Of a stretch of DNA of 36,575 bases, positions 1 to 21,131 are shown in pieces; the stretch's first letter is position 1; every line of letters begins with the position of its first letter. The position numbers were made by a program, and so were the translations under genes. The notes below the pieces were generated by a model. That model saw only the letters and a program-made list of their open reading frames with translations. It had not been told where the DNA came from and made no database searches. The stretch spans positions 1 through 36,575 of the forward strand of contig SXSO01000138.1 of NCBI GenBank assembly GCA_005792205.1, in the 5' to 3' direction. This stretch comes from Bacteroidota bacterium (GTDB taxonomy: Bacteria; Bacteroidota; Ignavibacteria; UBA10030; F1-140-MAGs086).

Positions 1-83
1 ATAATCTAAACAGTGGAATTTATTTTTATAAACTCACGACAAATAACTTTTCCGAAATGAAGAAAATGATTTTAGTAAAATAA
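1..83 (+). CDS. 3' end of a T9SS C-terminal sorting domain protein (truncated by the window edge)
   Basis: Frame from nt 3 reads NLNSGIYFYKLTTNNFSEMKKMILVK-stop (TAA 81-83), essentially the same C-terminus as the ORFs at 563-4555 and 18615-21131. Confidence 0.9.
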   Translation, partial: NLNSGIYFYKLTTNNFSEMKKMILVK

Positions 84-110
84 GTTTTTAGTCGTTATCG
101 TCGTTAAAAG

Positions 111-151
111 AAAATGGGATACAAAGTTTTTTGTGTCCCATTTTTGTTTTT
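111..151 (+). terminator. Rho-independent terminator after T9SS cargo gene, copy 1
   Basis: AAAATGGGATACAAA-GTTT-TTTGTGTCCCATTTT stem-loop (one G-U pair) followed by a T-rich tract. Confidence 0.8.
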
Positions 152-194
152 GGGAAATTGGAAAATTGGTTTAATAATGACAAATTATTTCTCT

Positions 195-425
195 AAAAAT
201 TGGAGTGTTTTTTCACATAAGAAGAGAGTTTTTCCTCGTCGGAATGGTTTACTTTTGACCGAAACGGTGCTAATTTATTGAGTGAAATCGCCATATTACA
301 TAAACTCATTATATTACAATATCAATCGATTTGACAGGAAAAAATTTCCACTTTATTATAATAAATAGGAAAATTTTTCCGTTCCAAATTATTTCTCAAA
401 ATAACGATTTTGGATAGTAAATACC
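195..425 (+). repeat. Intergenic modular repeat, copy R1 (lacks the 103-bp hairpin module)
   Basis: GGAGTGTTTTTTCAC..AAGAAGAG..TTTTTCCTCGTCGGAATGGTTTACTTTTGACCGAAACG, then TATTGAGTGAAATCGCCATATTAC, CAATATCAATCGATTTGACAGGAAAA and AAATTTTTCCGTTCCAAA, all shared with R2. Confidence 0.9.
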
Positions 426-495
426 AATATAAAGTAACAATCAAATTTTTTAAAAGTAAAATATGACTTTAAGTATTTCTAACAATTGTATTTCG

Positions 496-525
496 TTTGT
501 AAATAAATAATATTTGTTATATCTT
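496..525 (+). promoter_or_regulatory. Candidate sigma70-type promoter of the GH8 T9SS gene
   Basis: TTGTAA (497-502), 17 nt, TATCTT (520-525). The 16-mer TTTGTAAATAAATAAT also lies upstream of the other complete T9SS gene. Confidence 0.4.
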
Positions 526-571
526 CTACAAATAACAATCCCTTTTTTAAACATTATTTTTTTTGTGTTAT

Positions 572-3500
572 ATGCAATTACGACTAATTTATTATCTGTT
601 AATTATCAGTTTGGTCACTCTTTTCACAGGAGAACATTTTGCTTATTCACAAACTGTTAATTTTCCTTTTCCACAACATTTCACTTATACCGAAGGGACT
701 ATTTTCCCGTCAAATTATACTCAGCAACAACTTGATGATTCTACTTCTGTCTTTTACACGCGATGGAAAGAACGATATCTAATCAACGGTTGCGAACCGA
801 ATCAATATTATGTTTTCTGGAATTATGAAGGAGGTGGAAATCCACCAAATAGTATATCTATTTCCGAAGGACACGGTTACGGAATGATAATTACTGCGTT
901 GTTTGCGGGTTTCGATGTAAATGCAAAAAATTATTTTGATGGATTATACCGATACTTCAAAACTCATCCCACTGAAAGCGATTCTTTCTTAATGGCATGG
1001 AATCAAATTACCGGATGTGTCAATGCCGCAAACGGCGGAACAAGTGCTACCGATGGGGATTTGGATATTGCATACGCATTATTGCTTGCAGATAAACAAT
1101 GGGGAAGCAACGGAGAAATTGATTATCTCGCAGAAGCAAAAAATATACTTTTATCGCTTGAACAAAATTGTATAAATCCGATAACGTCAACAGTGACATT
1201 AGGAAATTGGGTAAATTCTTCCAATCAAAATTATTACTACGGAACACGAACCTCCGATTTTATGTTCTCGCATTTTCAATCATTTACGCTTGCATCGAAG
1301 AATCCGAAATGGAATCAAGTGAAAGATAAATGCTACGAACTTATTTCTTCCATTCAGAATAATTATAGCGCATCAACTGGCCTTCTTCCCGATTTTATCT
1401 ATCAGGTGAACACACAACCGAAACCCGCTCCTGCAAATTATCTCGAAGGAAATAATGATGGAAAATATTATTACAATGCTTGCCGCGTTCCGTGGAGAGT
1501 TGCTATGGATTATTTACATTACGGAGATATACGCGCAAAAAATTCTTTGGAAAAAATAAATACGTTCATCAAATCCACAACAAATTCTTCTCCGCAAAAT
1601 ATACTTCCAGGTTACGCGCTCAACGGAACGCCAATTCACACCGATTATGTAGATTTACCGTTTATCGCGCCGTTTGCCGTAAGTGCAATGACTGATTATT
1701 CGCATCAGCAGTGGTTAAACTCTATGTGGAATTATCTGCTGACGTTTTCGTTGAATGACGCATCGTATTATGGCAACACACTCAAACTTCTTTCAATGAT
1801 TGCCGTTTCCGGCAATTGGTGGAATCCACAAATTCTAACGTTTGGAAATTCTCTGTATGTTTCTACAAATGGAAACGATAATAATCCCGGAACAGAACTG
1901 TTGCCGTTGAAAACTGTTCAGCGAGCATTGAATATTGCTTCTGCGGGAACTACAATTTTTGTGAAAGAAGGAATCTATAACGAAAAAATTACATTCACTC
2001 ATTCGGGAAATGTGAACGATGGATTTATTACGCTTCGCAATTATGGAGGCGATACTGCAATTCTCGATGGAACAGGAAAAATGGGAGAACAAATGATTTT
2101 GATTGAAAATAAAAGTTATCTCAAAATCATCGGTTTGGAAATACAAAATAATTTGAATCAATCATTTGGTTCGGGAATTTGGATAAAAGGAAACGGAACA
2201 CATATCGAAATCCGCAACAATCGTATTCACGATATGAAAGCAACGACCAACGGTGACGCGATGGCGATTTCTGTGTACGGAACAAACGCAACTCCGTTTT
2301 CCAATATTATCATTGACAGTAACACAATTTACAATTGTCAACCGGGACACAGCGAAGCGCTTACTTTGAACGGAAATGTTGATACGTTTCAAATCACTCA
2401 CAATATCGTTCACGACGTAAACAACATTGGCATTGATATGATTGGCGGCGAAGGAACGTGTCCCGATGCAAATCAGGATGCGGCAAGAAATGGAATTTGC
2501 AGAAACAATATTGTTTATAATGCACATTCCAATTACGGCGGAGGATATGCAGCGGGAATTTATTCTGATGGTGGAATCAATATCATAATTGAAAACAATC
2601 TTGTCTTTTCTTCTGATGCTGGTTTTGAAATCGGCTGTGAAAATCAAGGAAGGATTTCCTCGGGAATTATTTTGCGAAATAACATAGCATATAACAATGA
2701 TAAACGTGGAATTGGAATCGGCGGATATAATTTTCCGCAAACGGGAAAAGTTATCAATTCGTATATCGTGAACAATACACTTTTTAATAATGATATTCTG
2801 AATACAACTGAAGGAGAATTGGTTGTGGAATACACGCAAAATTGTTGGTTTGAAAACAATATTTTTTATGCTTCATCGCAAAATCGGTTGTTCGTAACAA
2901 CAGTCGGAAACAATAGTGGAAATATTTTCAATCACAATACTTGGTATTCTCCCGGTGGAAATTCATCTGTAACGATAGATTTCAACGGAACGATATATTC
3001 TTCATTTACTGCGTATCAGAACGGAACGGGACAAGACGGAAATTCAGTTTTCGGAAATCCCCTCTTCATTTTTCCATCTTCGTCGTTTCCCGATTTTCAT
3101 CTTCTCAATAATTCTCCCGCAATAAATATTGGCAATAATTCGCTTTCAACAATATTAGGAAATTTTGATTATGATGGAAACGAACGAATCCAAAATGGAA
3201 TTGTTGATTGTGGCGCGTTTGAAATGAACACGAATGCGCCAAATCCGCCACAAAATTTAACTGTTGCTGGAAATGATTCGCTGGTAATTTTGCGATGGAA
3301 TAAAAATTCAGAAAATAATATTCTTCGCTACAGAATCTACGGAAGTACAACGTTTCATCCGATTTCACAAATTGATTCTACAACTGATACTTCAATTACC
3401 ATTGTGAATTTACAACGCGGAGTGCAATACTATTTTCGCATCACATCAGTAAATACAGAAATTTTGGAAAGCGGTTTTTCTAATGAAGTTAATTTTACTA

Positions 3501-4555
3501 CGCTTGCGTTTCAAATGTTTCGCACATTCAAATCGGATACTTCGCTTTCAAAAAAAGCAAATAAAGTAAAAATAAAAAAGAATGTTATAACAGTTTTTCC
3601 AAACATCGCAACGGTTATTGAAAATATTTTCATAACAAATGGAAAAATATTTAGACTGAATTTGGGAATTCCTCAAACATCTACAAATACAAAGAAATAT
3701 GCGTGGTTACAATTTAAAAAGTCGTCAGAAATTGGAAACCTTTATACGTCATCTCACACGGATAATGGAATTGCGTATCCAATTGATTCACTTCGCAGTG
3801 GAACGAAAGCAAAAAAAATGTCAAAAGCAATTACACCAACAAGAAAAAATTTTGACAACATTGCGTTTGAGCAAGGAGTTGTTTTTAAAATGAACATTGT
3901 TGCAAGTGAAGACACAATTCTTCCGTATGGATTTGGAGATTTGATTTTGGACACTTCATTTGTGTTTATTGGCAAAAATTTAAATGGAATGGCATTAAAA
4001 AATATTGCAATTTATTTTGATTCCGTTATGACGTATTGGGAAATTTTTGGAATAAATAATCAAACTCAATATGAAAATTTGTATTCATTTTCAAAACATA
4101 TTTTGAAGCGAATTAACGATGGTTTTTTTGCTCTAATGGATACATCAAATTATGAAATTGACAAAAATGTAATTGTAAAAAAACCGTATTCTGTGAAATT
4201 GGATGGAGTAAAACTCGCTTCTGAAATTGGAATTATAAAACAATTTACCGAAAAAAATATTTCTAACTTTTCAGAGGAAAATAATTTTCTCGATAAATTT
4301 TCATTGAAACAAAATTATCCAAATCCATTTAATCCGAAAACAAAAATAAAATATGAAATTGCAAAAAGTGGATTTGTAAATTTAAAAGTGTTTGATGTTT
4401 TAGGTCGTGAAATAAAAACACTTGTAAATGAATCTCAAAATGTTGGAACTTACGAAATTGATTTTGATGCGAGTCATTTGAACAGTGGAATGTATTTTTA
4501 CAAACTCACGACAAATAATTTTTCTGAAATGAAGAAAATGATTTTAGTAAAATAA
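572..4555 (+). CDS. Secreted multidomain glycoside hydrolase: signal peptide, GH8, right-handed beta-helix (DUF1565-type start, choice-of-anchor-Q-like end), FN3, unassigned conserved domain, T9SS CTD
   Basis: GH8 motifs SEGHGYGM, SATDGDLDIAYALLLADKQW and YYYNACRVPWR; YVSTNGNDNNPGT..PLKTVQRA and Asn-rich beta-helix; DFHLLNNSPAINIG..DCGAFE; FN3 PNPPQNL..LRW..YRIY..YYFRITSVN; CTD FSLKQNYPNPFNP..KKMILVK. ATG at 572 is preferred over the TTG at 563. Confidence 0.9.
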   Translation: MQLRLIYYLLIISLVTLFTGEHFAYSQTVNFPFPQHFTYTEGTIFPSNYTQQQLDDSTSVFYTRWKERYLINGCEPNQYYVFWNYEGGGNPPNSISISEGHGYGMIITALFAGFDVNAKNYFDGLYRYFKTHPTESDSFLMAWNQITGCVNAANGGTSATDGDLDIAYALLLADKQWGSNGEIDYLAEAKNILLSLEQNCINPITSTVTLGNWVNSSNQNYYYGTRTSDFMFSHFQSFTLASKNPKWNQVKDKCYELISSIQNNYSASTGLLPDFIYQVNTQPKPAPANYLEGNNDGKYYYNACRVPWRVAMDYLHYGDIRAKNSLEKINTFIKSTTNSSPQNILPGYALNGTPIHTDYVDLPFIAPFAVSAMTDYSHQQWLNSMWNYLLTFSLNDASYYGNTLKLLSMIAVSGNWWNPQILTFGNSLYVSTNGNDNNPGTELLPLKTVQRALNIASAGTTIFVKEGIYNEKITFTHSGNVNDGFITLRNYGGDTAILDGTGKMGEQMILIENKSYLKIIGLEIQNNLNQSFGSGIWIKGNGTHIEIRNNRIHDMKATTNGDAMAISVYGTNATPFSNIIIDSNTIYNCQPGHSEALTLNGNVDTFQITHNIVHDVNNIGIDMIGGEGTCPDANQDAARNGICRNNIVYNAHSNYGGGYAAGIYSDGGINIIIENNLVFSSDAGFEIGCENQGRISSGIILRNNIAYNNDKRGIGIGGYNFPQTGKVINSYIVNNTLFNNDILNTTEGELVVEYTQNCWFENNIFYASSQNRLFVTTVGNNSGNIFNHNTWYSPGGNSSVTIDFNGTIYSSFTAYQNGTGQDGNSVFGNPLFIFPSSSFPDFHLLNNSPAINIGNNSLSTILGNFDYDGNERIQNGIVDCGAFEMNTNAPNPPQNLTVAGNDSLVILRWNKNSENNILRYRIYGSTTFHPISQIDSTTDTSITIVNLQRGVQYYFRITSVNTEILESGFSNEVNFTTLAFQMFRTFKSDTSLSKKANKVKIKKNVITVFPNIATVIENIFITNGKIFRLNLGIPQTSTNTKKYAWLQFKKSSEIGNLYTSSHTDNGIAYPIDSLRSGTKAKKMSKAITPTRKNFDNIAFEQGVVFKMNIVASEDTILPYGFGDLILDTSFVFIGKNLNGMALKNIAIYFDSVMTYWEIFGINNQTQYENLYSFSKHILKRINDGFFALMDTSNYEIDKNVIVKKPYSVKLDGVKLASEIGIIKQFTEKNISNFSEENNFLDKFSLKQNYPNPFNPKTKIKYEIAKSGFVNLKVFDVLGREIKTLVNESQNVGTYEIDFDASHLNSGMYFYKLTTNNFSEMKKMILVK

Positions 4556-4582
4556 GTTTTTAGTCGTTATCGTCGTTAAAAG

Positions 4583-4623
4583 AAAATGGGATACAAAGTT
4601 TTTTGTGTCCCATTTTTGTTTTT
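4583..4623 (+). terminator. Rho-independent terminator after T9SS cargo gene, copy 2
   Basis: Same sequence as 111-151. Confidence 0.8.
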
Positions 4624-4666
4624 GGGAAATTGGAAAATTAGTTTAATAATGACAAATTATTTCTCT

Positions 4667-5000
4667 AAAAATTGGAGTGTTTTTTCACACAAGAAGAGTA
4701 TTTTTCCTCGTCGAAATGCTTTACTTTTGACCGAAACGATAGTGTTTTCGTAAAAATACACTCTATTTTCGGGAAAGTGTAATCAAATCGGTCAAAAAAC
4801 GCTTCACCGAGACGAAAATGAAGTCATTTTTGACCGAAACGGGACGAAATTATTGACTAAAATCTCCATATTACAAAAAGCCATTTTATTACAATATCAA
4901 TCGATTTGATAGGAAAAGATTTCCTCTTTTAGACAACAAAACGATAAATTTTTCCGTTCCAAACTTGTTCTCCAAAACAACGAGTTTAGACAAATAAATA
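4667..5000 (+). repeat. Intergenic modular repeat, copy R2 (carries the 103-bp module)
   Basis: Collinear with R1 plus an extra 103 bp bounded by TTTTGACCGAAACG direct repeats at 4725-4738 and 4828-4841; internal hairpin 4728-4794. Confidence 0.9.
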
Positions 5001-5105
5001 TCACTCCAAAATCTGGTTTCATAAATAAAAGAAAATCCATTTACAGAAAAATAAAACTGGATTTACAAGTTTAAAATTTTATTTCCAATTTCAATTTATC
5101 AAAAT

Positions 5106-5143
5106 AAAAAAAGGCAATTCAAAAAATTTGAGTTGCCCTTTTA
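5106..5143 (-). terminator. Intrinsic (likely bidirectional) terminator after the amidohydrolase operon
   Basis: A-tract, GGCAATTCAAA-AAA-TTTGAGTTGCC, T-tract. Confidence 0.7.
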
Positions 5144-5224
5144 TTTTTAAATCAATGTCTTCAATTTACAAACCAATAATTAAATTGATAAACAAAAATT
5201 AAATTCACAATACAAAAAATTTTT

Positions 5225-6523
5225 TTACACAAATAAATTTTTATTTCTCATATCTTTTTTATACTTTTCATATAACATTGTTTGATGACTTGTTAAATCA
5301 ATTTTTTTTCCGTCAATAAATTCCATTTCAACATTTGAACGAATATCAAAAATATCTCCATTCACAATAATTAAATTTGCGTCTTTTCCAATTTCTAACG
5401 ATCCAATTCTATTATCAACACCAAAAATTTGTGCGGGAAAAAGTGTAATGGATTTCAATGCAATATCTTTTGGAAGTCCATGAGCAATAGCAGTTCCAAC
5501 TTGATATGGAAGATTGCGATAATTTCCATCTCCACCTTCGTCTGCAGAAAAACAAAATTGGATTCCATTTTCATACAATTTTTTTGGAAGTAAAAATGGT
5601 TCGTTATACTGTTCCCAATTTCTATCGGGAAGTCGATGAGTCATATTTGCAACAACAGGAATTTGTTTTTCTTTCAAAAGATTTGCAATTCTCCAACTGT
5701 CATTTCCACCTGCAATTATTATGCGAACGTCATATTCTTCTGCAAACGCAACTGCAGATTGAATTTGTAAAATATCAAATGCCCAAACAAGAAGTGGAAC
5801 TTTTTTTTCAAAAACATTTATCATTGCGTCAAATTTTGCATCATATTTTTGTAGTGAATTATTTTTCTTTGCAACGAAATATGCTTTTGCATCTTTGAAA
5901 AATATTTGTAGTTCGTTTACAGATTTTTCATTTTCTTTTTTTTGGTCTTCTTCACTTCTTGTTTCCCACCACGCAGTATTTATTTTCATACTTGGGAAAT
6001 TCAAAACCATTGCTGACATTGATTTTACAAGCATATCTTCATAAGTCCATCCGTCAAGATTTACTGTTGCAATACTTCCAGAAATAATTCCACTTTGTGG
6101 TAAAACATTTACAGTTGTAATTCCATTGAAACGAGTTACAGGAATCAATTCGCTTTCAGTATAAACGGCAACTTCTGTTTTTAAATTCGGATTAAATTTT
6201 CCACCTTCAACATTATCGTGAGTTGCGCGAAGTGCTTGAACTTCATTTAATCCAAGAGTTGTGATTGAACTAAAAAGTCCGGGATAAATATGTTTTCCAC
6301 TTGCATCAATAATTTCATATTCAGAAGTTAAAGAAAAGTTTTTTCCAACAAATTCAATTTTTCCATTGCGAAAAGTTATTGTTCCTTTTTCAATTATTTC
6401 ATTTGCCGTGAAAACAGTTCCATTGATAATTGCAATTGGTTTGATTTGTTTTTTTGCAGGAATTTGATCGTTGCAAAAAATAATTTTGACAAAAAATAAA
6501 AAGAGAATAAAGTTTTTTTTCAT
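5225..6523 (-). CDS. Amidohydrolase-family protein, secreted, with degenerate metal site
   Basis: IDASGKHIYPGLF and IGSLEIGKDANLII amidohydrolase composite-domain motifs; HxH absent; N-terminal signal peptide. Confidence 0.85.
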   Translation of the reverse strand: MKKNFILFLFFVKIIFCNDQIPAKKQIKPIAIINGTVFTANEIIEKGTITFRNGKIEFVGKNFSLTSEYEIIDASGKHIYPGLFSSITTLGLNEVQALRATHDNVEGGKFNPNLKTEVAVYTESELIPVTRFNGITTVNVLPQSGIISGSIATVNLDGWTYEDMLVKSMSAMVLNFPSMKINTAWWETRSEEDQKKENEKSVNELQIFFKDAKAYFVAKKNNSLQKYDAKFDAMINVFEKKVPLLVWAFDILQIQSAVAFAEEYDVRIIIAGGNDSWRIANLLKEKQIPVVANMTHRLPDRNWEQYNEPFLLPKKLYENGIQFCFSADEGGDGNYRNLPYQVGTAIAHGLPKDIALKSITLFPAQIFGVDNRIGSLEIGKDANLIIVNGDIFDIRSNVEMEFIDGKKIDLTSHQTMLYEKYKKDMRNKNLFV

Positions 6524-6528
6524 GGCGA

Positions 6529-9623: not shown

Positions 9624-9656
9624 TAATCGCATTAATTAACACAATCAAAATAAATT

Positions 9657-9994: not shown

Positions 9995-10157
9995 ATTTTA
10001 TAGAACACTCATTTTAGTGCCATATTTATTGACTGAAATTATGATTTGTATCATATGAATGGAGTGGAAAGTTTTTCCGTTCTGATATGTTTTTTATAGA
10101 AATTTATTATATAATACAAAGAAATTTCACTCAATAGATTTGGTGTTTTTTCGAAAC

Positions 10158-10320
10158 AAAATGACTTCATTTTCGTCTCGGTGAAGCGTTTTTTGACCGA
10201 TTTGATTACACTTTCCCGAAAATAGAGTGTATTTTTACGAAAACACTATCGTTTCGGTCAAAAGTAAACCATTCCGACGAGGAAAAACACTCTTCTTGTG
10301 TCACAAAACACTCCGAAATT
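10158..10320 (-). repeat. Intergenic modular repeat, copy R3 (inverted relative to R2)
   Basis: Reverse complement of about 4674-4830 with 5 mismatches by eye. Further family fragments lie at 10027-10039, 10068-10082 and 10124-10136. Confidence 0.92.
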
Positions 10321-10475
10321 TTCAAAATAAACCCCAAAAAATCATCAATAATTACAGTGCTTTACGAGACAACGTCAACTCAATCAATTTTACAAAATAA
10401 AATTTAATTTCATAAAAAATATTTTGCAAACAAATTTTATCTCTTCGTATATTTTAGAAAAAAAATTATAAATTT

Positions 10476-11693: not shown

Positions 11694-11796
11694 TATACTA
11701 AAACATTTTTGAAAATATATTTAATTTAAATCAAATTTAGTTTTTTTTAAAAAATATATCTTTAAAATTATTTTTTGTATTTTTAAAAAGTTATTT

Positions 11797-12084
11797 ATGT
11801 TAAGTTATTGTTTTGTAAAAATTATTGGAAGAGTTCAAGGTGTTGGATTTAGATATTTTATTTTTCAAAACGCAAAGCGATTAAATTTATTGGGAACAGT
11901 TCGAAATCATATTGATGGAAGCGTAGAAATTGAAGTTGAAGGTAAAAAAAATAATATTGAAATACTTTTAGAGAAAATTAAAATTGGTCCAATAGAAAGT
12001 TACATAGAAGAAGTTCAAGTTGAATGGAAAAATTATCACAACGGATATGACGGTTTTAAAATAATTAAAACAACAAAAAAATAG
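11797..12084 (+). CDS. acyP: Acylphosphatase
   Basis: GRVQGVGFR and GTVRNHIDGSVE signatures. Confidence 0.93.
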   Translation: MLSYCFVKIIGRVQGVGFRYFIFQNAKRLNLLGTVRNHIDGSVEIEVEGKKNNIEILLEKIKIGPIESYIEEVQVEWKNYHNGYDGFKIIKTTKK

Positions 12085-12085
12085 A

Positions 12086-12568
12086 ATGAGTTATAGAGTT
12101 GGAACGGGAAGCGATATTCATAAATTAACTATTGGAAAAAAAATGTTTCTTGGTGGAGTTGAAATTCTACACAAAAAAGGATTTGAAGGTCATTCTGATG
12201 CAGATATTTTGCTTCATTCAATTTGCGATGCTTTGCTTGGAGCTAGTTCGCTTGGAGATATTGGAAAACATTTTCCAAACACCGATAAAAAATATAAAGA
12301 CATTTCTAGTTTGGTTTTATTGAGTGAAGTAAATAAAAAGATTTTGAAAAAAAAATATAAAATCATAAACATTGATTCTACAATACTTTTAGAAAAACCA
12401 AAAATTCAAAATTATATTCCACAAATGCAAAAAAATATTTCCTCTGTTTTAAACATTTTGATTGAACAAATTTCCATCAAAGCAACAACAACTGAACAGC
12501 TTGGATTTGTTGGAAAAGAAGAAGGGGCAATTGCAACATCTGTAGTACTTTTAAAAAAAATAAAATGA
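12086..12568 (+). CDS. ispF: 2-C-methyl-D-erythritol 2,4-cyclodiphosphate synthase
   Basis: RVGTGSDIH, GHSDADILLHSICDALLGA, GDIGKHFP, KATTTEQLGFVGKEEG. Confidence 0.97.
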   Translation: MSYRVGTGSDIHKLTIGKKMFLGGVEILHKKGFEGHSDADILLHSICDALLGASSLGDIGKHFPNTDKKYKDISSLVLLSEVNKKILKKKYKIINIDSTILLEKPKIQNYIPQMQKNISSVLNILIEQISIKATTTEQLGFVGKEEGAIATSVVLLKKIK

Positions 12569-13296
12569 AAAAAATTTTTATTTTAAGTTTTGTTCTTGTT
12601 TTATTTTTTTCTTCTTTTTCACAACACAAAACTCTCACTGAAAAAAAAGATACAACAAAAGTTGAAATTTATATTCAAGAAATCTTGGATTGGTTAGAGC
12701 ATCAAGATGAGGTTTGGATATATGTTATAATTTCATTTTTTGCTTTTGTAGAAAATATTTTTCCACCGTCTCCAAGTGATGTGATTGTGGTATTTGGTGG
12801 CTTTTTAAGTGGAACGGGAAAAATTTCAAATTGGGCATTAATTTTTTTTACAACAATTGGAAGCACAATTGGATTTGTGTTAGCATATTATATTGGGTTT
12901 AAAAGTGCTTCAAGAAAATTTTCCAACTTCAAAAAAAAATTTATTTCACCTGCTTCAATGAGAAAAGTTGATTCTTGGTTTACAAAATATGGTTACGCTT
13001 TGATTGTGATAAATAGATTTCTTCCAGGAACAAGAGCTGTTGTTTCATTTTTTGCGGGAATGATGAAACTTGATTTGCGAAAGACAACTGCTCTTTGTTT
13101 TATCAGTGCATTTTTTTGGAATTTATTTTTAATTGATTTAGGAAAATCTCTTGGAAAAAATTGGAAGATTGCGTTGGATTATATTTCCACATTTAATAAT
13201 GTAATGTGGATAGTAATAGTTTTTGTTGTGATTTTGGTGTTTCTTTTCATATTGCTTAAACGTCATAAAAGTAAACGGTTGAAAAAAAATGTTTGA
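12565..13296 (+). CDS. DedA family membrane protein with N-terminal extension
   Basis: FVENIFPPSPSDVIVVFGG and INRFLPGTR DedA motifs. Confidence 0.92.
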   Translation: MKKIFILSFVLVLFFSSFSQHKTLTEKKDTTKVEIYIQEILDWLEHQDEVWIYVIISFFAFVENIFPPSPSDVIVVFGGFLSGTGKISNWALIFFTTIGSTIGFVLAYYIGFKSASRKFSNFKKKFISPASMRKVDSWFTKYGYALIVINRFLPGTRAVVSFFAGMMKLDLRKTTALCFISAFFWNLFLIDLGKSLGKNWKIALDYISTFNNVMWIVIVFVVILVFLFILLKRHKSKRLKKNV

Positions 13297-13849
13297 AAAA
13301 TTTTTGGAGGTTGATAAAATAATTTTCAAATTTTTTAATCAACAGTTTACAAATTCGTTTTTTGATTTTTTGATGCCATTTATCACCGATATAAATAAAA
13401 GTAAAATTTTTATTTTTTTAATTTCACTTTTTGTAACATTTGTTTTTTGGAAAGGAGATAGACGAACAAGAACTATAATTTTGTTTTTAATTCCAACCGT
13501 TATTTTTTCTGATCAAATAAATAATTTTATTAAACAAAGTTTTGAGCGACTGCGTCCATGTAATGATATTTCTTTCAAAGAAAATGTGCGACTTCTTGTA
13601 AGTTGCGGAAGCGGATATTCTTTTCCCTCATCGCATGCAGTAAATAACTTTGCAGGAGCAAAATTTTTAAGCAATTTTTTCCCCAATAAAAAATTTATTT
13701 TTTATACAATTGCATTTGTAATGGCATATTCACGTGTTTATGTTGGAGTTCATTTTCCAAGTGATGTAATTGTTGGAAGTTTATCTGGTATTGCAATTGG
13801 AATTTTATTTTCTTTTCTTACAAAAAAAATTATATTCAAAGAAAAGTGA
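13289..13849 (+). CDS. PAP2 family phosphatase (possible undecaprenyl-PP or lipid phosphatase)
   Basis: K..FERLRP, SFPSSHA, SRVYVGVHFPSDV. Confidence 0.93.
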   Translation: MFEKFLEVDKIIFKFFNQQFTNSFFDFLMPFITDINKSKIFIFLISLFVTFVFWKGDRRTRTIILFLIPTVIFSDQINNFIKQSFERLRPCNDISFKENVRLLVSCGSGYSFPSSHAVNNFAGAKFLSNFFPNKKFIFYTIAFVMAYSRVYVGVHFPSDVIVGSLSGIAIGILFSFLTKKIIFKEK

Positions 13850-15399
13850 AAAAAAGTTTTTCTCTTATAATTTCTGGAATTTTATTTGGAATTTCTTTTC
13901 CACCAGATTCAATTGGAGCAATTGCATTTTTTTCATTTACTCTATTTTTATTTGTAATTAAAAAAGAAAAAAATTATTTTTCAGCAGTTAGAAGTTTTTA
14001 TATATTTTTTCTTATTGCAAATCTTATTGCACTTTATTGGATTAGTGGTTTTACACATTTGAAAGATGGATATTTGGTATTAGCTGGAATTTTAACAATT
14101 GTTGTTCATCCATTTTTTTTTCTTCCAGCAATTTTACTTTTCACATTTTTTAGAAACCAATTAGGTGAAACAATTGCTATGAGTTTATTTCCATTTCTTT
14201 GGACTTCATATGAATGGTTTCGCTCTTACACAGAATTTGCGTTTCCATGGCTTACAGTTGGAAACACACAAACATACGATTTACAATTTATTCAGATTAG
14301 TTCTGTTTTTGGTGTTTATGGAATTTCATTTTTAGTTTTATTGATAAATGTTTTATTTGTGTTTTTATATGAGTTTAAAGATGAAAGTAAAATAAAATCA
14401 ATTTCGATTGCTTTGGGAATTTTACTTTTGTATTTTATTCCAAAAATTTATGGAAATTATATTTTAGAAAATCAAAAAATTTCTGAAACGGAAAAAATTT
14501 CTGTTGCAATTATTCAACCAAATATAGATCCGTTTGACAAATGGACAAATAGCGTTGAAAAACAAATTACAGTTTTGAAAGAGATGTCAAACATTACAAA
14601 TATATTTAATCCTGATTTGATTGTATTTCCAGAAACTGCAATTCCAAAATATCTAAATTTAGAAGAAAATTATTTAGGAAATGAAAAAATATATTCTGAA
14701 CTCAATTCAATAGGAAAACCAATTTTAACTGGAGTTCCATTTTTTAAATATGTTTCAGAAAATACTTTTGGAGCAAAACAAATTTCAAATACAAATAGTT
14801 TTTATCAAGCGTTCAACTCTTCAATGCTTTTTTTTCCCAATAAAAAAAAATTTTATACATATTCTAAAATGCAACTTGTTCCATTTGCTGAACATGTTCC
14901 GTATTCACAAAATTTTTCTTTTCTTAAAAATTTTGGTTGGGGATTTGGAATAAGCGATTGGAATGTTGGAGATAAATACACAGTTTTCAAAATTCAAAAC
15001 ACGAAATTTGCAAATATAATTTGTTTTGAATCAGTATTTCCGCATCATTTTACAAAGTTTGATGGTGCTGAATTTTTTACAATAATTACAAACGACAGTT
15101 GGTGGGGAAATACAAGTGGTGCAATTCAACATTATCGTTTTGCAATTTTAAGAGCAATTGAAAATAGAAAATGGATTGTTCGTTCAGCAAATGGTGGAAT
15201 TTCTTGTTTCATAGATCCATTTGGGAATGTTCATAAACCAACTCAATATGACACAAAAAAAATAATTTTTCAAAATATTTTTCCAAATAGTGAAAAAACT
15301 TTTTATGCAAATCATATAGATTGGTTTCCGATTTTTTCTACAATTTTTTTATCTTTTGCTTTCGTGTTTTCAATCATAAAAAAAATTAATGTGAAATGA
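13846..15399 (+). CDS. lnt: Apolipoprotein N-acyltransferase
   Basis: Transmembrane N-terminal half with FPWLTVG; IIQPNI, VFPETA, YSKMQLVPFAE, ICFES, ITNDSWWG, RAIENRKWIVRSANGGIS. GTG start. Confidence 0.95.
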   Translation: MKKSFSLIISGILFGISFPPDSIGAIAFFSFTLFLFVIKKEKNYFSAVRSFYIFFLIANLIALYWISGFTHLKDGYLVLAGILTIVVHPFFFLPAILLFTFFRNQLGETIAMSLFPFLWTSYEWFRSYTEFAFPWLTVGNTQTYDLQFIQISSVFGVYGISFLVLLINVLFVFLYEFKDESKIKSISIALGILLLYFIPKIYGNYILENQKISETEKISVAIIQPNIDPFDKWTNSVEKQITVLKEMSNITNIFNPDLIVFPETAIPKYLNLEENYLGNEKIYSELNSIGKPILTGVPFFKYVSENTFGAKQISNTNSFYQAFNSSMLFFPNKKKFYTYSKMQLVPFAEHVPYSQNFSFLKNFGWGFGISDWNVGDKYTVFKIQNTKFANIICFESVFPHHFTKFDGAEFFTIITNDSWWGNTSGAIQHYRFAILRAIENRKWIVRSANGGISCFIDPFGNVHKPTQYDTKKIIFQNIFPNSEKTFYANHIDWFPIFSTIFLSFAFVFSIIKKINVK

Positions 15400-16430
15400 A
15401 AAAATTTATTGATTTAAGAAGTGATACTGTCACAAAACCATCTCAACAAATGAGAGAAGCGATGATGTTAGCAGAAGTTGGAGACGATGTTTTTGGAGAA
15501 GATACAGCAACAAATTTATTGCAAGAAAAAATGGCAAAAATGTTGGGAAAAGAAAAATCTCTTTTTGTTCCATCTGGTTCAATGAGCAATCAAATTTGTA
15601 TCAAAGTTCATACTGAAATTGGAGACGAAATAATTTGTGAAGAAGGGTCTCACATTTTCAATTACGAAGTTGCAGCGCCAACAGTTTTATCATCTGTGCA
15701 AGTGAAAACAATAAAAGGAGTTGGTGGAGTTTTTACTTTGGAAGAAATTAAAAAACATATTCGTCCAAAAGTATATTATATGCCAACAACAAAATTAATT
15801 GAAATTGAAAACACACACAATAGAGCAGGAGGAACAATTTTTCCAATTGATGAGATTAAAAAAATTTCTGAGTTTGTAAAATCAGAAAATATAAAAATAC
15901 ATTTAGATGGTGCGCGACTTTGGAACGCATCTATTGAAACGGGAATTAGTTTGAAAGAATATGCAAGTTATTTTGATTCGGTTTCTGTATGTTTTTCAAA
16001 AGGATTAGGAGCTCCTGTTGGTTCGCTTCTTGCGGGGAGTTTTGAGTTTATGGAGAAAGCAAAAAAAATCAGAAAACTTTTTGGAGGAGGAATGAGACAA
16101 TGTGGAATTATTGCTGCTGCTGCAATGTATGCAGTTGAAAATAATTTTGAACGATTAAAAGAAGATCATAAAAAAGCAAAATTTTTTGCAGAAGAAATTT
16201 CAAAATTAAATTCACTTCACATTGATTTAGAAAGCGTGCAAACAAATATTGTTTTAATTGAATTTGAAAAAACAAAAAAATCACAAGTTGAAATTTTAAA
16301 TCTTCTAAAAGAAAATAAAATTCTTTTAACTTCTGGAAACTATAATAGCCTTCGTGCAGTTTTTCATCTTGATGTTGATATGGAAGAAGTAAAAAAGGGA
16401 ATTGAAATTTTTAAAATGTTATTTGAATGA
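15396..16430 (+). CDS. ltaE: Low-specificity L-threonine aldolase
   Basis: IDLRSDTVTKP, VGDDVFGED, ENTHN, HLDGAR, CFSKGLGAPVG. Confidence 0.95.
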   Translation: MKKFIDLRSDTVTKPSQQMREAMMLAEVGDDVFGEDTATNLLQEKMAKMLGKEKSLFVPSGSMSNQICIKVHTEIGDEIICEEGSHIFNYEVAAPTVLSSVQVKTIKGVGGVFTLEEIKKHIRPKVYYMPTTKLIEIENTHNRAGGTIFPIDEIKKISEFVKSENIKIHLDGARLWNASIETGISLKEYASYFDSVSVCFSKGLGAPVGSLLAGSFEFMEKAKKIRKLFGGGMRQCGIIAAAAMYAVENNFERLKEDHKKAKFFAEEISKLNSLHIDLESVQTNIVLIEFEKTKKSQVEILNLLKENKILLTSGNYNSLRAVFHLDVDMEEVKKGIEIFKMLFE

Positions 16431-16891
16431 ATATAAAAATTCGTAAAGCAACAGAAACCGATTTAAATTGTATTTACACATTTAATAAAAATATAGCATT
16501 TGAAACTGAACACATTTTTTTGGATGATGAAAAAATACAAAATGGTGTAATAAATCTTTTGAAAAATCCTTCATATGGATATTATATTGTTGCTGAAATT
16601 GAAAACAAAATTGTTGGGCAACTTATGATAACTTTTGAATGGAGTGATTGGAGAAACGGACTTTTTCTTTGGATTCAAAGTGTTTATGTTTTGCCGGAAT
16701 TCCGCAATAAAGGAATTTACCGTACATTATATAATTATGTTTTAACTAATGCGAAGAGTAATAAAAATGTTTGTGGAATAAGATTGTATGTAGAAAAAAA
16801 TAATAAAACAGCTCGATCCGTTTATAATAAACTTGGAATGAACGAAGCGGAGTACGCTATGTATGAAACAGATTTCGTAATAAAACGATGA
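16427..16891 (+). CDS. GNAT family N-acetyltransferase
   Basis: EWSDWRNG..WIQSVYVLPEFRNKGIY; RLYVEKNNKTARSVYNKLGM. Confidence 0.9.
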   Translation: MNIKIRKATETDLNCIYTFNKNIAFETEHIFLDDEKIQNGVINLLKNPSYGYYIVAEIENKIVGQLMITFEWSDWRNGLFLWIQSVYVLPEFRNKGIYRTLYNYVLTNAKSNKNVCGIRLYVEKNNKTARSVYNKLGMNEAEYAMYETDFVIKR

Positions 16892-17331
16892 TGGAAAAAA
16901 ATATTTTCAAATTTTGTTCGCAAATTGGTGTTCGCAATTACGAAGTTGATTGGCAAGGAATTGTGCATAATGCAAATTACTTATTGTATTTTGAAGTTGG
17001 AAGAATTGAGTATTTAAAAAATTTGAAAATACAAATTGATTTAAAATCAATTCAAACAAATTCAAAAATTGTGCTTGTGAGAAATGAAATCAACCATCTA
17101 ATGCCTGCAAAATTTGATGAAACATTAAATATTTACACACGAATTTCCGAAATTAGAAATAGTAGTTTTGTGTTTGAAGGAATTTTAGAAGAAAAAAATT
17201 CAAAACGAATTATTGCAGAAAATGTTGCTTATCATGTTTGGTTGAATCCAAAAAATAATAAATCAAAACGTGTTTCAAATAGTTTTAGAAAAATTGTAAA
17301 AGAGTTTGAAAAAGAGAATTTGAAAATATAA
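16888..17331 (+). CDS. Acyl-CoA thioesterase (YbgC/FadM hot-dog family)
   Basis: VRNYEVDWQGIVHNANYLLYFEVGR. Confidence 0.9.
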   Translation: MMEKNIFKFCSQIGVRNYEVDWQGIVHNANYLLYFEVGRIEYLKNLKIQIDLKSIQTNSKIVLVRNEINHLMPAKFDETLNIYTRISEIRNSSFVFEGILEEKNSKRIIAENVAYHVWLNPKNNKSKRVSNSFRKIVKEFEKENLKI

Positions 17332-18252
17332 TTAAAAGTTTTTTCCCAAAATATTTTTTAATAAAACCCCATAACGCAAACCACAAGTTGAAACAATTAT
17401 TTTTTCCCAATTAAAAAATTTCATCACTTCGTAGAGTATTAAAACCCCTGAAAATATTATATCTTCTCGCCCTTTTGTAATTGTTGATAAATTTAAAATT
17501 TCTTTGTGATGCATTATTTTTAGTTTTTCAAAAAAAAACGTTACATCAGAAAAATTTAAATTTGTGTTGTGAATTTCTCTTTCATCAAAAAATAAAATTT
17601 TTTGTTTTAATCCCGCAACAGTTGTAACAGTTCCAGCAACTCCAATTGCAATTGAATTTGAAATCGAATTCTTATCAAACTTTTGCAATTCATTTTGAAT
17701 AAATTTTCTTGCATTTTCTATTTCAAAATTCTTTGGAATTTCATTTTCAAAAAATTTTTCTTTCAATCTCACAGCACCAACATCAATTGATTTTGCAATT
17801 AAATTTTTTTCAACCAAAGTTGTAATTTCTGTACTTCCTCCACCGATGTCAAAAACAGAAATTTTATTTTTATTTTCCAAATTCAAATTGTGAAGTGCTC
17901 CAATGAATGTGAGTTTCGCTTCGTTGTCACCGCTTAAAACTTCAATTTCCAAATCGGTTTCTGTTTTTATAAAATTTAAAATTTCAATTTTAATTTTTGT
18001 ATCACGAAATGAACTTGTTGCAACAACAAAAATTTTTTCAACACAAAAATTTGAAATGATTGATTTATATTCAATCAAAACATTTTTCAATTTTTCCTGT
18101 GATATTTTTGAAATCAAATTTGTTTTATCAACATTTTCTCCGCTTCTTGGAAAACGAATTGCATTGAAAAGTGAAACCAAAGAATTATTTTGAATCTCGG
18201 CAATAAGCAGTAAACATGTGTTTGTCCCGATGTCAATTGAGGCAACTCTCAT
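17332..18252 (-). CDS. ppx: Ppx/GppA family phosphatase (short form)
   Basis: ASIDIGTNT, VATSSFR, LSGDNEA, DIGGGSTE, GLRYG. Confidence 0.92.
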   Translation of the reverse strand: MRVASIDIGTNTCLLLIAEIQNNSLVSLFNAIRFPRSGENVDKTNLISKISQEKLKNVLIEYKSIISNFCVEKIFVVATSSFRDTKIKIEILNFIKTETDLEIEVLSGDNEAKLTFIGALHNLNLENKNKISVFDIGGGSTEITTLVEKNLIAKSIDVGAVRLKEKFFENEIPKNFEIENARKFIQNELQKFDKNSISNSIAIGVAGTVTTVAGLKQKILFFDEREIHNTNLNFSDVTFFFEKLKIMHHKEILNLSTITKGREDIIFSGVLILYEVMKFFNWEKIIVSTCGLRYGVLLKNILGKNF

Positions 18253-18360
18253 AAAAAAATTGAGTATAAAAATAAGAAAGTTTTATTGAAAGAATTTGTT
18301 TTAACACATTTAAACTCGTAAAAATAAATAATTATTTTTCTTTTATTGAATTTATTTTGA

Positions 18361-18540
18361 AAAATTTTGGTGTGTTTTTTCCCAAAAGAAGAGTGTTTTT
18401 CTTCGTCAAAATGGTTTACTTTTGACCGAAATGATGATATTTTTGCAAAAATACATTCTATTTTTGGAAAAATATCATCATTTCGGTCACAAACATAGTA
18501 TTCCGAATCAATAGATTAAACAGGAAAAAATTTCCTCTTT
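18361..18540 (+). repeat. Intergenic modular repeat, copy R4, with a near-perfect 67-bp palindrome
   Basis: Homologous to R2 from GGTGTGTTTTTT through TCGGTCA and ATCAATAGATTAAACAGGAAAAAATTTCCTCTTT. Arms 18423-18453 and 18459-18489 are complementary at 30 of 31 positions. Confidence 0.9.
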
Positions 18541-18551
18541 AAAACAAAAAT

Positions 18552-18587
18552 AAAAAAGGGACACAAAAAAACTTTGTATCCCATTTT
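18552..18587 (-). terminator. Rho-independent terminator after T9SS cargo gene, copy 3
   Basis: Reverse complement of the same GGGATACAAA..TTTGTGTCCC hairpin, preceded by AGTCGTTATCGTCGTTAAAAGAAAAT. Confidence 0.8.
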
Positions 18588-18614
18588 CTTTTAACGACGA
18601 TAACGACTAAAAAT

Positions 18615-21131
18615 TTATTTTACTAAAATCATTTTCTTCATTTCAGAAAAATTATTTGTCGTCAATTTGTAAAAATAAATTCCACTGTTTAAATTTGTTG
18701 CATCAAAATCAATTTCGTAAAATCCACTTTCCATTTCTTCATTATTTATTAGTGTAGAAATTTCACGTCCAAGAACATCATAAATTTTTAACGACACATT
18801 TTCAACATCAACTAACGAAAATAAAATCGTTGTCTTCGGATTAAATGGATTTGGATAATTTTGTTGCAAAGAAAATTTCGTCGGTGAAAAATTTTCTGCA
18901 TCAAGAAAATCTTCGTTTAAATTTTTCCCTGAATTATCTTTTACAATTGGAACATCAATTGAAGGATATGCAACTCCATCAAGTGTTACTGCATAAGATT
19001 TTTTCAAATTTAAAACAGCATTTTGATCAACAGTATAGTTTGATGTATCAAATGTTGCACTGAATCCTTCATTTATTCTTCGCAAAATATTTTCAGAAAA
19101 TGAATACAAATTTTTATACGCATCTGAATTTGTTACACTATTCAAAGACCAAAATGTTGCAAGTGAATCCATATAGTTTGCAATTTGTTTTAAAGATAAT
19201 CCATAAATATCTCGTCCCATAAACGTAAATGAAGTATCTAAAATTAGATCTTCAAATCCATTTGGTGTAACAAAAACTTTACTTGCAGCAATGTTAAGTT
19301 TAAACAACATTCCTTGTTCCAAAAATTTATTATTGTAGTTATCGCGTTTTGGTTTTATTGCTTTAGCAAGTTTTTTTCCCGTAGATTTTCCTGTTGAAAC
19401 ATTTCTCACATAATCAAGTGGGAATGATGTGTCAGAAATTGTGTGAGAAGAAGTATAAAGTTTTCCTAAATCAGTTGATTTTTTAAATTCAATCCACGCA
19501 ATTGTTTTTGCTAAAGTTGTATTTGTTGTACTTACACCAAATACAACTGCACTTCCTTTTGGTGTTTGTGATTGAAATACGTTTTCAACTGCTGTAACAA
19601 GATTGGGAGCAGTTTTAAATGTAACTTTATCTTTGTTGTAAACAATTTTTTTTAATTTATCTGAAAGAGAAATTTCAGATTTGAATGTTCTATATTTTCC
19701 TGAAATGTTTTGTTCAAATCCATATTTTGCAATAAAAATATCATATGAACTATGTGAATTAGTTGTCATAACAGAATCAAATGTCATAACTTGACTATCA
19801 TAATATCCTGTTATGAAATAATTTCCATCGGTATCAACTGTTATACTTTGACCTTTATCTAAATCACCACCACCACCATTTTCAACTAATACAACATTTC
19901 CATTTGCATCATATTTTGCAATGAAAATATCTGATGATGTTGTAGATGTATTTGTAATTGTAATTGTACCAAAACTTGCTGATGTTCCTGAAAAATATCC
20001 CGTGATAAAACTATTTCCACTTCCGTCTACAAAAATATCCCAACCAAAATCATCACTTGTTCCTCCTGCACTTTTTACCCATTTAAAAATTCCATTTGCA
20101 TCATATTTTACAATAAAAATATCGCTTCCACTTCCTTGATGGTTTGTTACAGAACCACTTCCAAATTCAATTGAATTACTTTTGAAATATCCAACTGTAT
20201 AAACATTTCCATTGTCATCTACATCAAGTGAATATGTTTTATCTTCATCTCCACCAACTCCACTTTTTGCCCAAAGAACTTCTCCATCTGCATCAAACTT
20301 TGTAATGAAGACATCTGCATCTCCATCATTGGTTAAAGTTGCCGTTGTATCAAATGTAAGTGTTGAGCTATAAAAAAATCCAGAAATAAAACTATTTCCA
20401 CTGTTGTCAACTGTGATTCCACTTCCAACATCGTTATATTCTTCACCAAAACTTTTTGCCCACGTAATTTCACCATCAGCAGTTGAAAGTTTTGCAATAA
20501 AAATATCTCCACTTACAGTTGTATCACTATTATTAAACAAAGCAGAGTTTCCAAACGTAATTGTGTTACTATAAAAAACACCAGTGATATACACATTGTT
20601 ATTATCTGTTGCAATGTCTAAACTATAATCTGCGTTTTCATTTCCAAATCTTTTTGCCCATTCAACTTCACCATTAGCAGAAGAAAGTTTTGCAATAAAT
20701 ATATCTTCATTTCCTGCAGATGTTAAAGTTGTTGAGCCAAATTCAATAGCATTTTTAAAATATCCTGTAATATAAATATTTCCATTGTCATCAATATCTA
20801 TATTTTTACATTCATCTGTATTTGTTCCACCAAAACTTTTTGCCCAAACAACATTTCCACTTGAATTATATTTTACAACGAAAACATCTGCAAGTCCATT
20901 ACTTGTCAAAATTGTTGAACCAAAAGTTGTTATTTCCGAACTTTCAAAATATCCTGTAATATAAATGTTTCCATTGTTATCCGTAACAATACTTTGTCCA
21001 TAATCATTTCCATTTCCTCCAGAAGTTCTAGCAAATTGCCATTCAGGTGTTTGTGAAAAAGTTTCAGTAAAAAATGCAACACAAATTAAAATTGTTGCAA
21101 TAATATTTTTAGTTTTTAACGTAATGTTCAT
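18615..21131 (-). CDS. Secreted SBBP/beta-propeller repeat protein with unassigned conserved domain and T9SS CTD
   Basis: Signal peptide; about 7 repeats of D.G..I.vD..GN.YITGYF...DIFIAKY...G...WAKSFGG; YRTFKSE domain from aa 480; CTD FSLQQNYPNPFNP..KKMILVK. Confidence 0.9.
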   Translation of the reverse strand: MNITLKTKNIIATILICVAFFTETFSQTPEWQFARTSGGNGNDYGQSIVTDNNGNIYITGYFESSEITTFGSTILTSNGLADVFVVKYNSSGNVVWAKSFGGTNTDECKNIDIDDNGNIYITGYFKNAIEFGSTTLTSAGNEDIFIAKLSSANGEVEWAKRFGNENADYSLDIATDNNNVYITGVFYSNTITFGNSALFNNSDTTVSGDIFIAKLSTADGEITWAKSFGEEYNDVGSGITVDNSGNSFISGFFYSSTLTFDTTATLTNDGDADVFITKFDADGEVLWAKSGVGGDEDKTYSLDVDDNGNVYTVGYFKSNSIEFGSGSVTNHQGSGSDIFIVKYDANGIFKWVKSAGGTSDDFGWDIFVDGSGNSFITGYFSGTSASFGTITITNTSTTSSDIFIAKYDANGNVVLVENGGGGDLDKGQSITVDTDGNYFITGYYDSQVMTFDSVMTTNSHSSYDIFIAKYGFEQNISGKYRTFKSEISLSDKLKKIVYNKDKVTFKTAPNLVTAVENVFQSQTPKGSAVVFGVSTTNTTLAKTIAWIEFKKSTDLGKLYTSSHTISDTSFPLDYVRNVSTGKSTGKKLAKAIKPKRDNYNNKFLEQGMLFKLNIAASKVFVTPNGFEDLILDTSFTFMGRDIYGLSLKQIANYMDSLATFWSLNSVTNSDAYKNLYSFSENILRRINEGFSATFDTSNYTVDQNAVLNLKKSYAVTLDGVAYPSIDVPIVKDNSGKNLNEDFLDAENFSPTKFSLQQNYPNPFNPKTTILFSLVDVENVSLKIYDVLGREISTLINNEEMESGFYEIDFDATNLNSGIYFYKLTTNNFSEMKKMILVK

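Follow-up and report, generated by a model that had tools for sequence, protein, structure and literature searches.

Concerted evolution by gene conversion is a familiar process in bacterial multigene families such as the rRNA operons and outer-membrane paralogues like Helicobacter babA/babB, and REP/BIME and Correia elements are repeated extragenic palindromes that act as terminators. The sorting domains of the type IX secretion system (T9SS) are usually regarded as fast-diverging, low-identity signals. A full-text literature search returned no description of genome-wide homogenization of these C-terminal domains (CTDs); the nearest account concerns Porphyromonas gingivalis, where modular adhesin and C-terminal regions of rgpA, kgp and hagA are exchanged by recombination (PMC5266723). 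A further article indicates that T9SS CTDs can be incompatible between species (PMC11285876). Here we analyze a 36,575-nt stretch of DNA (contig SXSO01000138.1), called the window, which is the entire contig C126 of a metagenome-assembled genome (MAG) labeled G000 (155 contigs, 1.24 Mb, 28% GC, rated 62% complete). Three T9SS cargo genes in the window end in a shared 3' unit of ~350 bp, the "house" module, which comprises a type A CTD of ~85-90 amino acids (aa), a 26-32-nt spacer and an intrinsic terminator hairpin with a T-run. This module is lineage-specific and is carried by at least 25 cargo genes; we consider it probable that it was spread and homogenized by repeated gene conversion, with no need for a cassette machine.

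A sequence-only reading of the window had placed the three gene ends at 83 (+), 4555 (+) and 18615 (-), and all three are found there; they are copies 1, 2 and 3 below. The corresponding features are as follows.

1-83, + strand: end of a T9SS cargo gene, last 27 codons and stop (house CTD end), from the overlap with contig C120 and the Pfam domains of the C120 open reading frame (ORF).
84-151, + strand: house tail of copy 1, with spacer 84-115, hairpin 116-139 (GGGATAC-loop-GTGTCCC) and T-run 140-151; top terminator-like site of the scan, 16 pairs.
563-4555, + strand: cargo gene of 1330 aa with GH8, beta-helix, fn3, a shared middle region and a type A CTD (Pfam, NCBIfam).
4286-4555, + strand: house CTD coding block; family homology begins ~260-290 nt before the stop; PF18962 50.5 bits, TIGR04183 55 bits.
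4556-4623, + strand: house tail of copy 2, with spacer, hairpin 4588-4611 and T-run; fold -21.4 kcal/mol, z=-4.67, equaled by 0/200 shuffles.
18615-21131, - strand: cargo gene of 838 aa with an SBBP beta-propeller, the shared middle region and a type A CTD (Pfam, NCBIfam, identity profile).
18545-18614, - strand: house tail of copy 3, hairpin 18558-18582, with one additional T in the loop (terminator scan).

The window and contig C120 (1-131, reverse) have their first 131 nt in common, with 0 mismatches. It is therefore probable that they adjoin, and very probable that copy 1 supplies the end of the 1565-aa S8-peptidase gene of C120. The last 25 codons of all three copies read LNSG(I/M)YFYKLTTNNFSEMKKMILVK. 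Their differences had been called nearly all synonymous, which holds in the window, where the I/M change in copy 2 is the single non-synonymous one, but not in the wider family (dN/dS ~0.27, dS ~0.6). The identity claimed for the last 10 codons extends over the final 9 codons and TAA, whereas at the tenth-last codon copy 1 has TCC and copies 2 and 3 have TCT. A 55-nt non-coding tail that had been quoted lies 3' of all three stops, copy 3 carrying the one additional T. Chance is excluded as the source of this shared end, since the motif GTGTCCCATTTTT occurs 21 times vs 0.04 times expected from base composition.

Between copies 2 and 3, identity in the coding part is 31% at -420 to -301 relative to the stop, 52-68% at -300 to -76, and 95% (71/75) at -75 to -1; in the non-coding part it is 95% (56/59) at +3 to +60 and 49% past +60. 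Copies 1 and 2 are 90% identical in the coding part (72/80), 100% at +3 to +60 (58/58) and 99% at +61 to +130 (69/70), and their similarity extends to ~+340 with an interruption by a 90-100-nt gap. Their homology past ~+80, which had been counted as common tail, is a separate dispersed intergenic repeat. Copy 3 is itself a mosaic: its CTD body belongs to a second subtype and is closest to C106 (78%), while its last 75 nt and tail resemble the type of copy 2, the tail being closest to C142 (97%).

The two complete genes had been described as having unrelated N-terminal regions. Their passengers do differ in Pfam content (GH8/beta-helix/fn3 vs SBBP propeller), but both contain, immediately before the CTD, a 259-aa region in which they are 45% identical at the aa level. 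At the C-terminus, PF18962 scores 50.5 and 48.7 bits (cut-off 27) in these genes and TIGR04183, the NCBIfam model of the T9SS type A sorting domain, scores 55 and 53 bits (cut-off 23). In the propeller gene, internal repeats at 19721-21032 (-) with a 189-192-nt period and 63-73% identity correspond to SBBP blades.

The shared end is not confined to these few genes. PF18962 has 48 matches in G000, 45 of them over the cut-off, and 26 gene ends lie within 2 residues of SEMKKMILVK, giving 25 distinct copies, with several further copies cut by contig ends; the genome thus holds ~25 or more. In an all-vs-all blastn comparison of gene ends (461 pairs), the shared block extends upstream of the stop by a median of 263 nt (interquartile range 240-273), and its downstream reach has an upper quartile of +65 and a 90th percentile of +73. 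Mean pairwise coding identity among the 25 copies is 0.17-0.31 upstream of -300, 0.38 at -300 to -271, 0.66-0.90 in the CTD and 0.89 in the last 30 nt; non-coding identity is 0.58-0.69 over +1 to +60 and 0.32-0.39 past +90. Similarity is therefore highest in the non-coding tail for the window copies, as had been noticed, but not for the family as a whole. At the aa level, the median CTD identity is 0.77 (23 copies), or 0.87 without the four most divergent.

What emerges is a tract of DNA-level homology, CTD plus non-coding terminator, with a sharp upstream edge at a domain boundary inside otherwise unrelated genes. Some pairs with unrelated passengers are 96-97% identical, others ~75%. PF18962 is over the cut-off in 22/22 subfamily proteins scanned, and its match always ends 3 residues before the stop, while the other domains of these proteins are GH8, SBBP, SdrD_B, M28, S8, M14, M36, Endonuclease_1, FG-GAP, Omp28, LVIVD, or none known. 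Passenger-vs-passenger blastp gave either no match or 24-49% identity in repeat or Ig-like regions; the passengers being unrelated, whole-gene duplication is ruled out. The N-termini of the cargo proteins appear hydrophobic and signal-like by eye (for example MKK..FLL..FSQ). By these profile matches, the house CTDs are predicted T9SS type A sorting domains that occupy the very C-terminus of multidomain secreted proteins; CTD-dependent export and cleavage by PorU are likewise predicted. A profile search of G000 recovered SprA (841.9 bits, ORF of 2546 aa) and PorV (120 bits); GldM gave no match in the 62%-complete genome, nor did a control search, which is no evidence of absence. A degenerate 36-nt pattern of the CTD end had 0 matches in a collection of genome contigs.

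Beyond the stop codon, the homology continues through a spacer and hairpin that encode no protein. The spacer has a GTTATCGTCGTT-like core and several indel variants, and it measures 26-32 nt in 17/17 regex-defined CTD-linked hairpins. The hairpin consists of GGGAYAC, a loop of 8-12 nt, GTGTCCC and a T-run, with a flanking A-run able to lengthen the stem. A G+C-rich stem-loop followed by a T-run just 3' of the stop is what is expected of a Rho-independent terminator, and we predict this role for it; the three best terminator-like sites in 20 kb are the three window tails. One copy (C31) carries a compensatory stem, GGGACAT/ATGTCCC, and in a few copies (C146, C27, C129, C22) the hairpin is decayed. 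Rfam at gathering thresholds gave 0 matches across the window. The idea that GGGACAC is a DNA-uptake sequence was dropped: there are 58 copies vs roughly 17 expected from base composition, and most lie inside the hairpins. The spacer as an integron attC site was also set aside, since integron cassettes are whole ORFs and the module begins inside a gene.

How alike the copies are in coding sequence is a less direct guide to DNA exchange than it may appear. By the Nei-Gojobori method, 253 pairs give dN 0.18, dS 0.60 (median; 5-95% range 0.26-1.0) and dN/dS 0.27, indicating purifying selection together with partial, not complete, homogenization. At identical amino acids the same codon is used in 77.4% of cases vs 62.8% expected (16,598 comparisons), an excess that is real but modest, the expectation being already so high because the genome is AT-rich. 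At the DNA level, the clearest evidence comes from the non-coding tail and from the abrupt upstream edge.

Signs of recombination were also obtained. Seven valid triplets have blocks of alternating parentage (maximum chi-squared permutation p<=0.005), with breakpoints that vary between triplets, and the PHI test on unselected sequences is significant (p=0.004 with 18 sequences and 130 informative sites; p=0.014 with 22 sequences). In Mantel tests, distances in the CTD body correlate with those in the 3' coding part (r=0.69), whereas tail distances correlate neither with the CTD body (r=-0.13, p=0.83) nor with the 3' coding part (r=0.02). The association between tail classes and CTD types has been broken up, the junctions lying close to the stop codon. 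The module is a mosaic with a sharp upstream edge at the domain boundary, and its parts have incongruent histories, unlike those expected of a simple recent duplication.

We compared the module with 30 genomes of the same family or order, none of the same genus, labeled G001-G030. The best DNA match to the module in these relatives is 79% over ~100 nt, and longer stretches reach 67-76%. For three of them, the last 240 coding nt of the ~30 best-scoring CTDs were taken from 76 (G030), 150 (G003) and 102 (G001) matches, with the following results.

G030: CTD median pairwise identity 0.67; pairs at >=80%, 1.4%; 70-nt tails at >=70%, 0.2%.
G003: CTD median pairwise identity 0.59; pairs at >=80%, 0%; 70-nt tails at >=70%, 0%.
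G001: CTD median pairwise identity 0.59; pairs at >=80%, 1.4%; 70-nt tails at >=70%, 0%.
G000: CTD median pairwise identity 0.73; pairs at >=80%, 29.7%; 70-nt tails at >=70%, 23.9%.

As the sequence-only reading had supposed, CTD paralogs are normally divergent at the DNA level, with 0-1.4% of pairs at >=80% in the three relatives vs 30% in G000. The house subfamily is absent from the best ~30 CTDs of each of these three relatives and is lineage-specific.

Individual orthologues point in the same direction. For the M14 carboxypeptidase cargo gene, G001 and G002 both encode full-length orthologues, with 51-60% aa identity in the passenger, 49-55% in the CTD and unrelated tails; the C-terminal two thirds of the GH8 gene have a partial orthologue in G002 (passenger 57%, CTD 50%). 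Within G000, the M14 CTD is 98% identical to that of a paralogue. In a tree of 139 CTDs it falls inside a G000-only clade (12 rows, SH-aLRT 95; 14 rows at 78), at 0.03-0.04 substitutions/site from paralogues vs 1.5-1.7 from the CTDs of its orthologues. Paralogous CTDs within G000 are therefore more alike than orthologues between genomes. Since the orthologues carry different CTDs and tails, the cargo genes are older than the module, and their 3' ends were overwritten in this lineage. The CTD and the downstream terminator have been overwritten and kept alike within G000, while the orthologues in related genera differ.

A sister genus has a house hairpin of its own. In G002, the two orthologues share a different hairpin, found at 17 sites as CCTTCAAGG-N-CCTTGAAGG (N9) vs 0 for a reversed control. 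It lies mostly 8-10 nt 3' of cargo stops behind a conserved CGAAT-like spacer (for example L228, L229 and L230 among the records L223-L237); 15 loci were fetched, and 9/12 gene-proximal records follow CTD genes. The G002 tails have a median identity of 0.74 (64% of pairs >=0.70) vs 0.67 for the CTD coding ends. Because this hairpin differs from that of G000, house terminators 3' of T9SS cargo arose at least 2 times in the family, with different sequences.

Gene conversion fits the mosaic breakpoints, the PHI test, the uncoupled CTD and tail distances, and the orthologues with other CTDs and tails. In the mechanism that we propose, the passengers, unrelated enzymes and adhesin-like proteins, would already have had CTDs of their own before these were overwritten. 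The first tail could have reached genes with other terminators by one-sided (homology-facilitated illegitimate) events, after which two-sided homology would sustain conversion. Repeated non-allelic gene conversion, that is, homologous recombination between dispersed copies with variable tract ends, would then keep the copies alike, while purifying selection would act both on the CTD protein (dN/dS ~0.27) and on the hairpin. Uniformity of the CTD may be advantageous, as one translocon (SprA and PorV are present) must recognize all cargo. House tails behind genes without a CTD are, in at least one documented case, the remains of a deleted cargo gene. Of the dedicated cassette mechanism that had been suggested as an alternative to gene conversion there is no sign. 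A reverse transcriptase (RVT_1) was not matched in the 62%-complete genome, which is no evidence of absence, and no recombinase is found among the window genes annotated next to the three copies, integrases not having been searched for.

The house tail is also found away from CTD genes. Of 32 blast matches to the tail, 23 are located 3-38 nt past a CTD stop. Orphan hairpins occur on G000 contigs C77, C135, C124, C5, C24, C104, C109 and C33, and the hosts include a 561-aa membrane protein, ORFs that resemble acyl-CoA dehydrogenase and MurA (C-termini by eye), a tRNA-like sequence and other ORFs. Their homology to CTD tails begins at -34, -12, -4 or +11 to +31 and runs to +55 to +113; in several orphans the final 4-17 nt of a CTD coding sequence survive, immediately after the host gene's stop or overlapping it. 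In one record, L215 (reverse strand, ~1198-1337), downstream of a 280-aa ORF, a start codon plus ten codons of a signal peptide run directly, but in a different frame, into the final 32 codons of a CTD and a house tail. From this arrangement, the L215 orphan is clearly a deletion relic of a cargo gene. C16 had been considered as an orphan relic fused to the dispersed repeat. This was dropped because the matching L215 differs upstream of -36 and shows the deletion relic; the end of C16 may be misassembled.

The repeat was further examined in contigs of four sequencing runs aligned to window 3900-5300; three of these runs are from one study, which may include the source sample. No run recorded as RNA is listed for this interval, which does not bear on whether it is expressed. 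The summed depth is ~12 in unique flanks (run X1), against 230-870 in the CTD, 115-138 in the tail and 130-475 in the downstream repeat, and many variants coexist. The high depth and the coexisting variants indicate that the repeat is real and multi-copy rather than an assembly collapse, the possibility that had been raised against it. In two runs the passenger contigs end at 4322/4323, having covered 27-37 nt of the CTD block with 0 and 2 mismatches, and contigs resume at 4903-5086. Ten contigs from other metagenome assemblies, not copies of G000 contigs, add members to the family. Among these contigs, L219 has the same coding/tail junction as C110, with 99.2% identity over 247 nt, and in L208 a passenger known from the C2 end is joined to a house CTD (matching a C27 fragment at 156/157 positions) but followed by its own, different terminator. 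CTD and tail can thus travel separately.

Several points weigh against repeated conversion as the full account. About 10 distinct house hairpins lie behind non-CTD genes, including the tRNA-like sequence, so that CTD-anchored conversion alone is insufficient. The values of dS among the copies are not small, and homogenization is therefore partial or old for many pairs; at 28% GC, much of the coding identity is explained by aa conservation and codon bias. The triplets were chosen by eye, and one of eight (with C122, whose copy ends at +41) is invalid because terminal gaps were counted. There is no same-genus genome for comparison, the closest DNA match among the 30 relatives being at 79% identity, and three relatives are each represented only by their ~30 best-scoring CTDs. 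The main uncertainty is the short-read MAG itself. Around the stop the copies are identical over runs of 41-105 nt, and 24 of 310 contig ends fall within the repeats; for these reasons some mosaics and CTD/tail pairings could be assembler path switches. No per-run contig listed extends from passenger to tail. The extreme form of this concern is that the whole pattern is an assembly or consensus artifact, produced by repeat collapse or chimeric joining in the metagenome bin, and the divergence of C16 from the corresponding contig of another assembly upstream of -36 would agree with it. Nevertheless, the copies differ at many positions while all keep open reading frames and predicted-functional hairpins, in two runs the unique passenger contigs continue into the CTD block with few or no mismatches, the depth of the repeat is tens of times that of its flanks with variants coexisting, and contigs from other assemblies reproduce two junctions. 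We regard such an artifact as extremely improbable. The family might instead stem from a one-off burst, in which a single CTD-plus-terminator unit was attached to many passengers and the copies then diverged without further conversion. A dS range of 0.26-1.0 with distinct tail classes does have the look of a long-diverging family, and the upstream edge is stereotyped at the domain boundary. Such a burst predicts congruent histories, however, whereas body and tail are uncorrelated, the PHI test is significant and breakpoints vary; nor does it sit well with unrelated-passenger pairs that range from ~75% to 96-97% identity. We consider this origin unlikely.

Conservation could also be driven by function, with no DNA exchange: the translocon would demand a uniform CTD, the hairpin and spacer would be a functional 3' untranslated region (UTR) or terminator of a cargo regulon, and selection and AT codon bias would do the rest. 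The expected same-codon use of 0.63, the dN/dS of 0.27 and the one compensatory stem change would all be accommodated, as would the different G002 hairpin, mostly behind CTD genes with tails (0.74) more alike than the CTD coding sequence (0.67), and the possible incompatibility of CTDs between species indicated in PMC11285876. But selection is unable to create homology in a spacer or a sharp DNA edge at -270, and the other, ancestral CTDs and tails of the orthologues indicate that the present ones were copied in, so that selection explains persistence, not origin; as an explanation of the whole, this is improbable. A small mobile or 3'-anchored copying element, with the terminator and a variable upstream stretch spreading alone and CTD genes as its commonest carriers, would account for the ~10 hairpins behind non-CTD genes or a tRNA, for orphans that keep 4-34 nt of CTD coding sequence with a variable 5' extent and a fixed 3' end, and for the uncoupled tail and CTD histories. 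One orphan is demonstrably a deletion relic, however, 23 of the 32 tail matches follow a CTD stop, the 62%-complete genome yielded no reverse transcriptase, and terminal repeats or target duplications were not noticed, although no search was aimed at them; this element seems very unlikely to us. Finally, the hairpin may drive CTD conversion rather than be carried along by it, either as a palindrome that initiates recombination or 3'-anchored copying, or as a functional 3' UTR of a T9SS cargo regulon, forming with the CTD a portable "export plus stop" piece. In favor of this, each of two genera in one family has a house hairpin of its own that became fixed mainly downstream of T9SS cargo genes; the window copies and those of G002 are most similar in or close to the tail; tail and CTD histories are uncoupled; and in copies located behind other genes the 3' end is constant while the 5' extent varies. 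We hold this idea to be doubtful, and take repeated gene conversion between dispersed copies as the probable explanation.

The dispersed intergenic repeat that follows copies 1 and 2 is an element separate from the CTD module. It has 18-25 genome copies and contains a long imperfect palindrome with an exactly 67-nt unit, TGACCGA...TCGGTCA (15 occurrences). Only 5-8 copies of each of its modules lie within 800 nt 3' of a CTD stop, in both orientations. No Rfam family matched it, and it folds with a z-score of only -2.1. The repeat could supply downstream homology for conversion. Its occurrences in the window are as follows.

165-423, + strand: modules M1 and M3, without the 67-nt palindrome; not part of the CTD module.
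4637-4990, + strand: M1-M3, with palindrome 4728-4794.
10121-10322, - strand: repeat copy with palindrome 10194-10260, no cargo gene adjoining.
18349-18550: repeat copy with palindrome 18423-18489; its orientation to the gene is opposite that of the 4637 copy.
36508-36575, - strand: fragment at the contig end.

Elsewhere in the window, short inverted repeats with ACATGTAAAG-like units occupy 26595-26689 and 36455-36508, two intergenic regions ~9.8 kb apart. At 30055-34139 (-), a 680-aa ORF matches the alpha and beta subunits of 2-oxoacid dehydrogenase E1 (fused form) and adjoins separate alpha (31056-32072) and beta (30055-31029) genes, 300 nt of the beta parts being 70% identical. The closest proteins to the dihydrolipoyl dehydrogenase of the window, at up to 77-78% aa identity, are from MAGs that are mostly Ignavibacteriales/Ignavibacteriota, some with mixed labels, and the host is probably an Ignavibacteriales-type genome.

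In the 62% of this genome that was recovered, over half of the CTDs identified share a single near-uniform signal accompanied by its own terminator. The finding, if confirmed, would mean that concerted evolution can act on a secretion signal throughout an entire secretome. It would also offer a natural experiment on translocon recognition, the house CTD being set against ~20 divergent CTDs of the same genome, and a ready-made portable tag-plus-terminator for cargo expression in such organisms. The poor assembly of genomes of this group would be explained as well, given the 24 of 310 contig ends in repeats. The different house hairpin in the sister genus raises the question of whether terminators spread as units.

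Among known systems, the rRNA operons and babA/babB likewise have paralogues within a genome that are more alike than orthologues between genomes, with mosaic tracts. There, homology covers all or much of the gene, whereas here a short 3' module that includes the terminator is shared by non-homologous genes. As with REP/BIME and Correia elements, one hairpin sequence family recurs at many gene ends; unlike REP-type repeats, which have no tie to one protein domain, the house tail lies mostly just past CTD stops (the 23 of 32 matches above), and its homology is continuous with the coding sequence. The P. gingivalis rgpA, kgp and hagA genes (PMC5266723) are similar in that T9SS cargo genes of one genome have near-identical C-terminal regions through recombination or conversion and are built of modular parts. 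They are a few related virulence genes that share large adhesin blocks, whereas ~25 dispersed genes here share only the CTD and terminator, and exchange here is within one genome, not allelic between strains. We view the house module as concerted evolution of a secretion-signal-plus-terminator unit by gene conversion on an unusually large scale, a variant of a known process and not a cassette system.

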